NCBI RefSeq assembly: GCF_000007985.2
Contig: NC_002939.5
Coordinates: 3,690,001 to 3,722,000 of the forward strand
DNA length: 32,000 nucleotides
Origin: Geobacter sulfurreducens PCA
GTDB taxonomy: Bacteria > Desulfobacterota > Desulfuromonadia > Geobacterales > Geobacteraceae
Direction: 5' to 3'
The notes beneath the pieces are model-generated. The model was not told where the DNA came from and did not search any database. It was given only the letters and a program-made list of their open reading frames with translations. Positions 4,207-7,494 of the stretch are shown in pieces; position 1 is the first letter of the stretch; every line of letters begins with the position of its first letter. A program made the position numbers and the translations under genes.

Positions 4207-4419
4207 CTATTCCGTGAAAATCGGCTCCTTGGCCGCTTCAGGGCGCTTCTCGCTCTGGGGTACGGAACAGCGGTTCTCGGGGGCAGGGTTGTCCGGCTCG
4301 CTCCTGTCCAGTTCCTGCCGCACAAGCACGGCGGCGTGATCTAGCAGGCTCTTTCTGCCGCTGTCCGACAGCCGCCGGAATTCGATGATGAGTTTATGCT
4401 CGTCCAGGCTCAGGTCCAT
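4207..4419 (-). CDS. Small hypothetical protein (70 aa), probably co-transcribed with the transglutaminase-like gene
   Basis: Internal ATG at 4419 (MDLSLDEHKLIIEFRRLSDSGRKSLLDHAAVLV...) is preceded by GGAGAACCGAC. The upstream part of ORF 4207..4548 looks non-coding. No family recognised. Confidence 0.45.
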   Translation of the reverse strand: MDLSLDEHKLIIEFRRLSDSGRKSLLDHAAVLVRQELDRSEPDNPAPENRCSVPQSEKRPEAAKEPIFTE

Positions 4420-4468
4420 GGTCGGTTCTCCTTCGGGGATGGGATTCCCCTCCACGGGGGTTGTGGAG

Positions 4469-4625: not shown

Positions 4626-4704
4626 AGAAAAAGAGTTGCGAGGGTCGAGAGATCCTCATTATGCCCTAGTCGACTTTCCCTCCTAGTCGCTAGGGTGTTT
4701 TTTT
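4626..4704 (+). ncRNA. Predicted ~80-nt sRNA or terminator-containing leader upstream of the sigma-54 activator gene
   Basis: Bounded by the promoter at 4591-4619 and the intrinsic terminator at 4664-4704. The only ORF inside is ATG-CCC-TAG. The terminator loop UUUCCCUCCUA contains an anti-Shine-Dalgarno CCUCCU. Confidence 0.35.
4664..4704 (+). terminator. Rho-independent terminator (plus-strand specific)
   Basis: CCCTAG(T)CGAC pairs with GTCGCTAGGG: 10 bp with one bulged T and an 11-nt loop. It is followed by TG and seven T (4698-4704). On the other strand the run precedes the stem, so it is not bidirectional. Confidence 0.6.
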
Positions 4705-4808
4705 GCCGCCAACCCACTGCGCCACATCTGGCACAGCGTATACTTTATGTGTCACTTATTGCACACCACCCCCTCAATAGTGTATGGTTCACATGTACAG
4801 GAGGCGAC

Positions 4809-7100
4809 ATGGAGCCGATAATTACCGACAAGGAAAAGTGCCGCAAGTGCTACTGCTGCGTCAGGAGCTGCCCGGTCAAGGCAATCAAGGTTGAAAAACG
4901 CTACACCGAAATTATCTTTGACCGCTGCATCGGCTGCGGCAACTGTCTGAGCAATTGCCCCCAACGGGCAAAGATGGTGGCCGACAAAGTGGGTGTTACC
5001 GAGAGTCTTCTCACCTCGGAAGACAAGGTAATCGCCGTGCTCGGATCATCATTTCCAGCCTTTTTTCACAATGTTGCACCGGGCCAGCTTGTGGCCGGCC
5101 TCAAGCGGATCGGCTTCCGTGAAGTCCACGAAGGGGCCTACGGTGCTGAACTGATCGCTGACGATTACGCCCGTATTACCGGCGATAATGACCGGACCTA
5201 CATTTCATCCCACTGCCCGGCCATCGTTGACCTGATCGAGCGACACTACCCGAAACTGCTCAGAAACCTGGTGCCCGTCGTTTCTCCCATGATCGCCATG
5301 GGCCGCTATCTCAAGGAAGTTCTGGGCCCCAAGACCAAGGTGGTCTACATCAGCTCCTGCATTGCCGCAAAGTTCGAAACCCAGATGACCGAAACGCGGG
5401 GAGCCATCGACATTGTTCTCACCTATCGGGAACTGGAGGGCATCTTCCGCAGCCGGCAGATTTCCCTCCCGGCCCTCGATGCGCTTCCCTTCGACGGGCT
5501 TGCGCCCACGGTGGGACGACTTTTCCCCATCAACGAGGGAACCTTCCGGTCGTTCTCCATGTCGGCGGACCCCCTTGACACTGAAATAGTCTCCGCCTGC
5601 GGCGAAGTAAACGTCATGGGCATCATCAGAGACTTGGCTGCAGGCAGGATCGCCCCCCGCTTTGCCGATCTGCGCTTCTGCTATGACGGGTGCATCGGCG
5701 GTCCCGGCCGCAATAGCGAACTGACCGAATTCTACCGCCGCAACCTGATCATTAACCATTACAAGCAGGACATCCCCTACGAGACGGCTCCGCACTATCT
5801 CTCCTCCCGTGAGCAGACCGGCCTGGACCGCTCTTTTGCCAGCAAGCACGCGCGCCTCGAGTCGCCAAAAACAAATGATATCAAGAAAATACTGCAAGCC
5901 ACCAGCAAGTACTCGGTCAAGGACGAACTCAATTGCCGCGCCTGCGGCTATCGCACCTGCCGCGAGTATGCCGTGGCGGTCTACCAGGGCTTGGCCGAGA
6001 TCGAGATGTGCCTTCCCTACAACCTCCAGCAACTGGAAGAGGATCGTGGTCGCCTGATCCAGAAGTACGAGCTCGCCCGTCGAGAACTCGACCGCGAGTA
6101 TACTGACGAGTTCATCGTCGGCAACGACCGCAAGACCTTGGAAGTACTTGATCTCATCAAGCAAGTGGGGCCGACGCCGACGACGGTTCTGATCCGGGGC
6201 GAGTCGGGAACCGGCAAGGAACTCACCGCCCGAGCCATTCATCGCTTCAGCAAGCGCAACGATAAGCCCCTGGTGACCGTGAACTGCACCACTATCACCG
6301 ACTCCCTTCTGGAGAGCGAACTCTTCGGACACAAGCGGGGGGCCTTCACCGGTGCCATCGCCGAGAAAAAGGGGCTGTTCGAGGCCGCCGACGGCGGCAC
6401 CATTTTCCTGGATGAAATCGGCGATATCACGCCGAAATTGCAGGCAGAGCTCCTGCGTGTCCTCGACATGGGCGAGGTGCGTCCCGTTGGGGGTACGACC
6501 GCCCGCAAGGTCGACGTACGCCTCATTGCCGCAACCAACCGGAACCTCGAAGAAGGAGTACGGGAGGGCTGGTTCCGCGAGGATCTGTATTATCGCCTCA
6601 ACGTTTTCACCATTACCATGCCGCCTCTGCGCAACCGGGTGGAGTCGATTCCGATCCTGGCGCACCACTTCATGGAAAAAGCCAGCACCAAACTGAACAA
6701 ACGGCTCTCAGCCATCGAAGAGCGGGCCGTCATCGCCCTCACCAAGTACCCTTGGCCCGGCAATATCCGCGAGATGCAGAACGTCATCGAACGGGCTGCG
6801 GTTCTTGCCCACGACGATGTTATCCACCTGGAGAACCTCCCCCTGGCCCTTTCGGAAAATCTGGCAGGAAGCCCGACCGCCGACCTGGATATCCGGGCTT
6901 CCTTCCGCGCGGAGCGCGAAAGGCATGTGGTCAAGCTCGAGAAGAAGCTGATCCAGCGCTATCTGGCCGAGGCAAACGGCAATGTGAGCCGTGCCGCGCG
7001 GCTCGCCAACATTCCCCGCCGAACCTTTTACCGCCTGCTCGACAAGTATCGCCTCAAAGACAAAGAGGTGCGGGATATGCCGCAGGGGGACAGACAATAG
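4809..7100 (+). CDS. Sigma-54-dependent transcriptional activator (EBP) with an N-terminal 2x[4Fe-4S] ferredoxin and [FeFe]-hydrogenase-like sensory domain
   Basis: ATG 4809 is preceded by AGGAGG (4799-4804). Two CxxCxxCxxxCP motifs lie at 4839-4961. H-cluster-like motifs: SSHCP (5205-5219), SSCIAAKFE (5352-5378), CYDGCIGGPG (5679-5708). Cx2Cx4Cx16C at 5934-6011. AAA+ module: GESGTGKE, ESELFGH, GAFTGA (6369-6386). C-terminal Fis-type HTH (NVSRAARLANIPRRTFYRLL). Confidence 0.92.
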   Translation: MEPIITDKEKCRKCYCCVRSCPVKAIKVEKRYTEIIFDRCIGCGNCLSNCPQRAKMVADKVGVTESLLTSEDKVIAVLGSSFPAFFHNVAPGQLVAGLKRIGFREVHEGAYGAELIADDYARITGDNDRTYISSHCPAIVDLIERHYPKLLRNLVPVVSPMIAMGRYLKEVLGPKTKVVYISSCIAAKFETQMTETRGAIDIVLTYRELEGIFRSRQISLPALDALPFDGLAPTVGRLFPINEGTFRSFSMSADPLDTEIVSACGEVNVMGIIRDLAAGRIAPRFADLRFCYDGCIGGPGRNSELTEFYRRNLIINHYKQDIPYETAPHYLSSREQTGLDRSFASKHARLESPKTNDIKKILQATSKYSVKDELNCRACGYRTCREYAVAVYQGLAEIEMCLPYNLQQLEEDRGRLIQKYELARRELDREYTDEFIVGNDRKTLEVLDLIKQVGPTPTTVLIRGESGTGKELTARAIHRFSKRNDKPLVTVNCTTITDSLLESELFGHKRGAFTGAIAEKKGLFEAADGGTIFLDEIGDITPKLQAELLRVLDMGEVRPVGGTTARKVDVRLIAATNRNLEEGVREGWFREDLYYRLNVFTITMPPLRNRVESIPILAHHFMEKASTKLNKRLSAIEERAVIALTKYPWPGNIREMQNVIERAAVLAHDDVIHLENLPLALSENLAGSPTADLDIRASFRAERERHVVKLEKKLIQRYLAEANGNVSRAARLANIPRRTFYRLLDKYRLKDKEVRDMPQGDRQ

Positions 7101-7120
7101 TGTGCACTTTTGGCCAAGCC

Positions 7121-7138
7121 TGTGCCAACCGTGACACA
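7121..7138. promoter_or_regulatory. Candidate upstream activator sequence (EBP binding site)
   Basis: Inverted repeat TGTGCCA-ACCG-TGACACA with arms matching 6/7. A further TGTGCAC half-site lies at 7101-7107. The repeat is centred about 115 bp upstream of the -12 element, with an AT-rich tract (about 7150-7225) in between. Confidence 0.35.
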
Positions 7139-7231
7139 AGGATGTATACGAAGATTTTTATTAGATAATTTTTATATTTAACTTAATAATGATTTCGACA
7201 GGTTATAATTTTTTTCTCCATCCTTCGGATC

Positions 7232-7247
7232 TGGCATGTATATGGCA
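7232..7247 (+). promoter_or_regulatory. Sigma-54 (RpoN) -24/-12 promoter
   Basis: TGGCATGTATATGGCA compared with the consensus TGGCACG-N4-TTGCW. GG at 7233-7234 and GC at 7245-7246 have the canonical spacing. It lies about 60 nt upstream of the small ORF start. Confidence 0.75.
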
Positions 7248-7305: not shown

Positions 7306-7494
7306 ATGGGAAGAATGAGAGAAAATCCGCGGTACAACGTTATCTCCATGAGGATCAGCGACGAAGAGCGTGATCGCCTGCAGGCAATCATGGAAGCCAC
7401 TCACAAGAGCGTGTCGGACATCATGAGGGAGGCTATGGAGCTTTTCTCCGTCCAACTCGAACAGTCTCAACCCGGAGACCAGAAGGCCGCCTGA
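7306..7494 (+). CDS. hgtR: 62-aa ribbon-helix-helix-like transcriptional regulator; locus matches my recollection of HgtR
   Basis: ATG 7306 is preceded by GGAGGA. MGRMRENPRYNVISMRISDEERDRLQAIMEATHKSVSDIMREAMELF shows a strand-helix-helix pattern. It sits downstream of a sigma-54 promoter and next to an EBP. The symbol is assigned from remembered locus context, not from a search. Confidence 0.65.
   Translation: MGRMRENPRYNVISMRISDEERDRLQAIMEATHKSVSDIMREAMELFSVQLEQSQPGDQKAA

Follow-up and report, generated by a model that had tools for sequence, protein, structure and literature searches.

We analysed a 32,000-nucleotide stretch of the Geobacter sulfurreducens PCA genome (NC_002939.5, positions 3,690,001 to 3,722,000; hereafter the window) and found that the sigma-54 activator gene upstream of hgtR (GSU3364) encodes an [FeFe]-hydrogenase-like sensor whose 2Fe-subcluster pocket has been remodelled. 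There is about an even chance that this sensor carries four [4Fe-4S] clusters without a canonical H-cluster/[2Fe]H and reads the redox state of the cytoplasm. An earlier interpretation of the activator was made from the letters of the window (the sequence-only reading); the gene, its hydrogenase-like domain and the idea that it senses H2 had by then been published (Ueki and Lovley, 2009/2010, PMC2817479; PMC2725144). We found no residue-level analysis of the sensor in the searchable literature. The present analysis adds the rebuilding of the cavity, a contrast in gene neighbourhoods, a wider distribution of sigma-54 fusions and a conserved palindrome.

The activator starts at the ATG at 4809 (MEPIITDKEKC...), in agreement with public gene calls, and not at the GTG at 4695 given in the open reading frame (ORF) list. 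Its modules follow the order 2x[4Fe-4S] ferredoxin, [FeFe]-hydrogenase H-domain, Cx2Cx4Cx16C cluster, AAA+ and helix-turn-helix (HTH):

4809-7100, plus strand: sigma-54 enhancer-binding protein gene, 763 amino acids, directly upstream of hgtR/GSU3364 (Pfam, public gene calls)
4818-4970, plus strand: N-terminal 2x[4Fe-4S] ferredoxin-like domain, residues 4-54 (Pfam Fer4 families)
5028-5705, plus strand: [FeFe]-hydrogenase H-domain homolog, residues 74-299 (Pfam Fe_hyd_lg_C, PF02906, E = 1.3e-45)
5928-6017, plus strand: C-terminal accessory Fe-S domain with Cx2Cx4Cx16C, residues 374-403 (Pfam FeS, PF04060, E = 8e-11)
6018-6101, plus strand: long linker helix between the Fe-S domain and AAA+, residues 404-431 (AlphaFold model)
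6114-6614, plus strand: Sigma54_activat AAA+ domain, residues 436-602 (Pfam, E = 8e-69)
6936-7049, plus strand: Fis-type HTH_8 DNA-binding domain, residues 710-747 (Pfam, E = 6e-10)

The C-terminal half has the features of a bacterial enhancer-binding protein, with Walker A (GESGTGKE, starting at 6198), the GAFTGA loop (6339), Walker B (FLDEI, 6405) and the C-terminal HTH. Pfam also assigns an AAA lid and bears out the direct fusion of the sensor to a sigma-54 AAA+ output. The modelled linker helix is presumed to be a signal-transmitting coiled coil; in histidine-kinase relatives, the same position runs into the HisKA helix.

Resemblance of the central domain to the hydrogenase H-domain is not due to chance. 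A phmmer search of the PDB retrieved Thermotoga maritima HydA at 4e-23 and paired sSHCP with tSCCP, sSCiaaKfE with mPCtakKfE and fCydGCiGG with aCnyGCvGG. The AlphaFold model of the activator (predicted local distance difference test score 82, predicted template modelling score 0.80) has CbA5H, HydABC, DdH and CpI as its best structural matches in Foldseek, with template modelling scores of about 0.6-0.68 and E values of about 1e-21. In-frame translation of 5205-6011 gives SSHCP (5205-5219), SSCIAAKFE (5352-5378), FCYDGCIGGPG (5676-5708) and the accessory motif C376-x2-C379-x4-C384-x16-C401 (5934-6011). The CpI sequence, checked to be identical to 1FEH/3C8Y, was used to carry CpI numbering over to the activator:

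CpI C299: H135 (5211-5213)
CpI C300: C136, cubane ligand
CpI C355: C184, cubane ligand
CpI C499: C291, cubane ligand
CpI C503: C295, cubane ligand

The HMMER alignment and this mapping agree with the sequence-only reading that all four cubane cysteines are present and that the relay cysteine has become His. Its exact Cx2Cx4Cx16C is found in the translation, and homology of the domain to HydS-type (group C/D) sensory [FeFe]-hydrogenases is supported. The motif positions that it gave are right, except that FCYDGCIGGPG starts at 5676, 5679 being the Cys codon. Its equation of SSCIAAKFE with MPCxxKxxE holds for C184 and E190 but is incomplete, the position of Lys358 being occupied by Ala187. K188 corresponds to CpI Lys359, because C184-E190 has the same spacing as C355-E361 with no indel; Lys188 was rejected as the cyanide-binding lysine on the same ground.

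Many close homologs of the activator, at 59-74% identity, occur in Geobacter, Geomonas, Geotalea, Citrifermentans, Desulfuromonas and Trichloromonas; they are hereafter called the Geobacter-type clade. C136, C184, C291, C295 and the four C-terminal cysteines are invariant in 120/120 homologs, as is Cx2Cx4Cx16C. Each of the eight ferredoxin-type cysteines (C11, C14, C17, C21 and C40, C43, C46, C50) is kept in 110-120 of the 120, and all eight are present where the N-terminus is complete. The group-A proton pathway is not kept: C299 is His, and the positions of E279, E282 and S319 are not conserved. Cx2Cx4Cx16C is a hallmark of the putative sensory [FeFe]-hydrogenase groups C and D (Land et al., PMC8163306). 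The activator thus combines two N-terminal [4Fe-4S] motifs and the C-terminal Cx2Cx4Cx16C with the absence of C299 and the proton pathway, as in HydS-type proteins. Judged from its sequence, the sensor is a descendant of group-C-type sensory [FeFe]-hydrogenase modules. Loss of Cys299 is normal in groups C and D, and only the His stands out.

The pocket that holds the 2Fe subcluster in CpI is altered at eight positions. We took the CpI cavity residues from the published list (PMC10147833) and compared 145 related sensors with 11 representatives of the Geobacter-type clade, counting residues within the clade over the 120 close homologs:

CpI A230: Ala in 120/145 related sensors; Gly79 in the Geobacter-type clade
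CpI P231: Pro in 137/145 related sensors; Cys or Ser80 in the clade
CpI I268: Thr or Val in related sensors; Gly109 in the clade
CpI C299: Ala, Pro, Ser or Thr in related sensors; His135 in the clade
CpI M353: Gly in 141/145 related sensors; Ser182 in the clade
CpI P354: Pro in 140/145 related sensors; Ser or Thr183 in the clade
CpI K358: Lys in 131/145 related sensors; Ala or Gly187 in the clade (A187, 5367-5369)
CpI M497: mostly Leu in related sensors; Arg289 in the clade (5673-5675)

The G. sulfurreducens pocket consists of G79, S80, G109, H135, S182, S183, A187 and R289. His135 is found in 119/120 close homologs, Arg289 in 120/120 and S182 in 119/120. At the K358 position Lys is missing from all 120, of which 89 have Ala, 28 Gly and 3 Ser. 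Among the residues that hold [2Fe]H, K358 is replaced by Ala, P231 and P354 by Ser and A230 by Gly, leaving only S232 and P324 of this set. C299 and M497 flank the bridgehead amine of the azadithiolate (adt) ligand of the 2Fe subcluster, and Lys358 contacts the distal cyanide (PMC10147833). His135 and Arg289 are bulkier than the residues that they replace. Because C299 and M497 have given way to larger residues and the cyanide-binding lysine is gone, the rebuilt pocket looks incompatible with a canonical 2Fe subcluster. In the sequences compared, the rebuilding of the cavity is specific to this Desulfuromonadales clade.

Position 80 (5046-5048) is Cys in 108/120 close homologs and Ser in G. 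sulfurreducens and 11 others. Most of the clade thus has an additional pocket cysteine beside His135. Outside the clade, three histidine-kinase-fused proteins (P0140, 647 residues; P0198; P0141) have His at the C299 position and keep Lys358, and in P0140 the M497 position is Arg as well; these may be intermediates in the remodelling of the pocket.

These residues bear on the proposal of Ueki and Lovley that the activator is a genuine HydS-type H2 sensor, in which a complete or slightly variant H-cluster is reduced by H2 and activates AAA+. The full module architecture is that of groups C and D, which bind an H-cluster (PMC8163306), the four cysteines together with S232, S323, P324 and F417 are retained, and Arg289 could in principle replace the positive charge of Lys358. 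Against this stand the disappearance of Lys358, Pro231, Pro354 and Ala230 specifically in the Geobacter-type clade and the occupation of the adt bridgehead positions by His and Arg. Weighed with the neighbourhood and expression evidence described below, we regard an H2 sensor with an H-cluster as unlikely.

The same pocket, beside [4Fe-4S]H, might instead be a new site for a ligand other than the 2Fe subcluster (for example a metabolite, a small anion, a gas or a lone metal ion) whose binding is the signal. His135, Arg289 and Ser182/183 would line it, joined by Cys80 in most homologs; its new polar residues are strictly conserved, and G79 and G109 widen the cavity. A metabolic signal would fit the control that HgtR exerts over tricarboxylic acid (TCA) cycle genes. 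However, no ligand can be named from sequence, G. sulfurreducens itself has Ser at position 80, the pocket is read from sequence, and the known inducing conditions share reducing power but no obvious metabolite. We consider a new ligand site decidedly unlikely. A narrower form, in which the His135/Arg289 pocket detects H2 or a small reductant through a non-2Fe cofactor in an organism free of HydEFG, or else an energy-status metabolite, seems to us very unlikely.

Gene neighbourhoods separate the clade from its relatives. An HMMER search of 1.8 billion representatives identified 688 proteins at E <= 1e-30, and the best 150 of these are nearly all three-module Fe-S sensors fused to histidine kinase, GGDEF, PAS or sigma-54 outputs. 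The sigma-54 output occurs in at least 14 further 50%-identity clusters, all of which keep Lys358. The fusion is thus not unique to this protein, and the view of Ueki and Lovley that other bacteria lack this activator type can no longer be maintained. A neighbour-joining tree groups the Geobacter-type clade as monophyletic, with Lys358-keeping sigma-54 fusions as sister lineages, a topology which suggests that the sigma-54 fusion came first and the remodelling of the pocket later.

A HydA protein (563-583 residues, with MPCTAKKFE and CPGGCxxGGGQP) is encoded directly upstream of the sensor in 17/25 Lys358-keeping loci. Many of these loci encode HydE, HydG and HydF downstream, identified by NCBIfam equivalog matches well over cut-off, and a sigma-54-fused sensor of Peptococcaceae CEB3 (L027) has hydF-hydG directly upstream. 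In total, hydA and/or hydE/F/G lie in the flanks of 20/25 Lys358-keeping loci and of 0/10 Geobacter-type loci (Fisher p = 1.6e-5); the 32-kb window and the flanking DNA of the nine other clade loci (L001-L009) contain neither hydA nor hydEFG. The Geobacter-type clade would thus have lost its linkage to hydA and hydEFG. Conventional-looking sister sigma-54 fusions with hydFG next door favour an H2 sensor, but the empty flanks of all ten clade loci argue against one, as does the literature on G. sulfurreducens, which lists four hydrogenases, only [NiFe] (PMC7894505), as the sequence-only reading had stated. That reading had also suggested that the domain could carry only Fe-S cubanes. Both the missing Lys358, lost along with four other cavity residues, and the absence of hydA/hydEFG linkage strengthen this suggestion; the interpretation overall is only partly supported. 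A protein search seeded with the HydG of L022 returned only Margulisbacteria and Planctomycetes-type matches among more than 8000 candidates and is uninformative for Geobacter.

The arrangement of hydA, a histidine-kinase-fused sensor and then hydE/hydG/hydF recurs in L011-L032 (e.g. L011:2737-11915, L018:3357-13766, L027:6882-12211). It spans many phyla, including Bacteroidota, Planctomycetota/Kuenenia, Verrucomicrobiota and Calditrichota. The HydA proteins that adjoin these sensors often have TSCSPGW instead of TSCCPGW.

Expression data form the third line of evidence. Expression of hgtR rises with H2, and growth on H2 requires the gene (PMC2817479), which supports an H2 sensor. Without added H2, hgtR was up more than 1000-fold in a bccR deletion strain with acetate/Fe(III), and it was also up in formate-grown biofilms and one acetate biofilm. 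The authors of the biofilm work described a 'thermodynamic response' and not a hydrogen response. The pocket is remodelled, the linkage to maturase genes is missing and hgtR is induced also without added H2, and for these reasons we favour a four-cubane redox sensor. The activator would then carry four [4Fe-4S] clusters and no canonical [2Fe]H, and its signal would be the reduction level of the cytoplasmic low-potential electron pool. Over-reduction would reduce the cluster chain as far as the C-terminal cluster and, through the linker helix, release AAA+ assembly. The activator would then switch hgtR on from the TGTGCCA-N4-TGGCACA site that precedes the hgtR sigma-54 promoter by about 110 bp, and would probably also bind the palindrome in its own promoter.

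A related possibility is that the clusters report their own integrity, so that cluster loss in response to O2, NO or iron status would be the switch, following an FNR/IscR-like logic. Four solvent-reachable cubanes with conserved ligands in a cytoplasmic regulator of a strict anaerobe are consistent with this mode. The reported inducing conditions are reducing and not oxidising, however, and the electron-wire architecture is inherited from redox enzymes, which leaves an integrity sensor only a slim chance.

Comparison with characterized systems places the activator nearest to sensory hydrogenases. T. maritima HydS (group C, M2f) shares the N-terminal 2x[4Fe-4S], the four-Cys H-domain and the C-terminal Cx2Cx4Cx16C; both proteins lack the relay Cys299 and the proton pathway, and the nearest database relatives of the activator are of the group-C type. 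T. maritima HydS differs in having a PAS domain where the activator has its sigma-54 AAA+ plus HTH output. It also has Ser at 497 and Gly at 353, whereas the activator has Arg at 497 and His at 299 and has lost Lys358, Pro231, Pro354, Ala230 and the hydA/hydEFG linkage. Thermoanaerobacter mathranii HydS (TamHydS; group D, M2e), a putative sensory hydrogenase, shares the three Fe-S modules, lacks a PAS domain and has Ser in place of Met353, matched by Ser182 of the activator, but it binds an H-cluster, turns over H2, stands alone and is encoded beside a bifurcating hydrogenase (PMC8163306). Ser182 was rejected as a sign of group D membership because sister lineages have Gly, and the likeness looks convergent. 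The histidine-kinase-, GGDEF- and sigma-54-fused sensors (L010-L034, P0122-P0270) are 35-43% identical over the 430-residue sensor and have the same cluster motifs. They differ in keeping Lys358 within GPCxAKKxE and in lying, for the most part, in hydA-sensor-hydE/G/F clusters.

Eukaryotic Nar1/NARFL (IOP1) proteins are H-domain homologs that keep the cubane cysteines, are not known to carry a 2Fe subcluster and occur in hosts not known to have HydEFG. Their role lies in cytosolic Fe-S assembly and not in transcriptional sensing; no Cx2Cx4Cx16C domain is known in them, and they keep the lysine (PCxDKKLE). The parallel is a functional analogy only, as database searches find the nearest relatives of the activator among bacterial group-C-like sensors. 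In Ralstonia eutropha, HoxBC with HoxJ/HoxA is likewise a hydrogenase-derived sensor that controls a sigma-54-type activator in response to H2, an analogy already drawn in PMC2817479. HoxBC is a proven H2 binder of unrelated fold and cofactor that works through a multi-protein relay, whereas the activator is a single polypeptide.

Several observations weigh against a four-cubane redox sensor. First, H2 is the only directly published stimulus of hgtR. G. sulfurreducens is able to make H2 itself, so H2 may be the signal in the inductions without added H2 as well. Second, Nar1-type proteins are not known to carry the 2Fe subcluster yet keep the lysine, which makes the lysine an imperfect predictor either way. 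Third, S232, S323, P324 and F417 are kept in related sensors and the Geobacter-type clade alike, and the strict conservation of His135 and Arg289 suggests that the pocket has kept some specific function and has not just been plugged. Finally, the neighbour-joining tree is rough and carries no support values, and the hydEFG negative covers the window and the locus flanks.

The output of the system lies immediately downstream. Leang et al. (2009; PMC2725144) described the gene of an enhancer-binding protein upstream of GSU3364, along with a predicted RpoN promoter, and the RpoN promoter and 5' end of hgtR have been mapped experimentally (Ueki and Lovley, PMC2817479). The published GSU3364 cloning primer (PMC2817479) matches 7306-7327 exactly, which identifies the window as the G. 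sulfurreducens hgtR locus. The following elements surround the activator gene:

4718-4735 and 4748-4765: two copies of TGTGCCA-N4-TGGCACA, 44-91 bp upstream of the activator start (pattern search)
7121-7138: palindrome TGTGCCA-N4-TGGCACA (TGTGCCAACCGTGACACA), located some 110 bp before the hgtR promoter (alignment and pattern search)
7232-7247, plus strand: sigma-54 -24/-12 promoter of hgtR, TGGCATGTATATGGCA, kept in six Geobacteraceae loci
7306-7494, plus strand: hgtR (GSU3364), a 62-residue ribbon-helix-helix repressor of gltA, nuo, atp and other genes and the output of the system (Pfam, PMC2817479)

In the window and five other Geobacteraceae loci, about 200-260 bp separate the activator gene from hgtR downstream. 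Intergenic alignment and pattern search revealed the palindrome, which an inverted-repeat search of 7090-7240 had missed. Its three sites in the window compare with 0.32 expected. The downstream palindrome is kept 13-84 bp past the activator stop in nine loci (the window, L001-L005 and L007-L009); the contig of L006 ends 33 bp past the stop. The proximal upstream palindrome is kept in 10/10 loci (the window and L001-L009), and the upstream palindrome occupies the -35 position ahead of a TATA-like -10 box. These placements make 7121-7138 a candidate upstream activating sequence for the activator and 4718-4765 a candidate autoregulatory operator. By binding the palindrome, the activator would turn on hgtR and probably regulate its own promoter too. 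A sigma-54-like match at 7112-7127 on the minus strand was rejected as a promoter because it falls in the left arm region of the palindromic site.

Three Desulfuromonas-type loci (L005:2575-2722, L008:12487-12622, L009:12464-12586) have no hgtR after the activator gene. In these loci, the palindrome and a consensus sigma-54 promoter (e.g. TGGCACAGCCATTGCT in L009) are followed by a stretch of about 100 non-coding nucleotides in which CAAGGGA(G/A)CA and CCUCCC boxes and an intrinsic terminator are conserved. The stretch is a candidate sigma-54-dependent small RNA that may replace hgtR. Its only Rfam match was a sub-threshold one to mmgR (22.5 bits against a gathering score of 41).

A 487-residue antisense ORF (5205-6668, minus strand) and several ORFs of 80-140 residues overlap 4809-7100; no gene is called for them in public assemblies, and they look like GC-rich shadow ORFs. 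A 70-residue ORF without a Pfam match (4209-4421, minus strand) is divergent from the activator gene and separated from it by a terminator-like hairpin at 4681-4695.

Through HgtR, Geobacter shifts its central metabolism (the TCA cycle, NADH dehydrogenase and ATP synthase) between acetate and H2/low-energy modes, and what triggers hgtR has been a standing question since 2009. The loss of H-cluster residues and hydrogenase gene neighbours recasts that question from one about an H2 sensor to one about a hydrogenase-derived Fe-S redox sensor. Running from Lys358-keeping sigma-54 fusions beside hydFG to the remodelled Geobacter clade, these proteins offer a natural series for the loss and repurposing of the active site in sensory hydrogenases. 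Should the pocket prove to be a new ligand site, the activator would be the first case of a bacterial hydrogenase homolog turned into a sensor of a ligand other than the H-cluster type that governs central metabolism.

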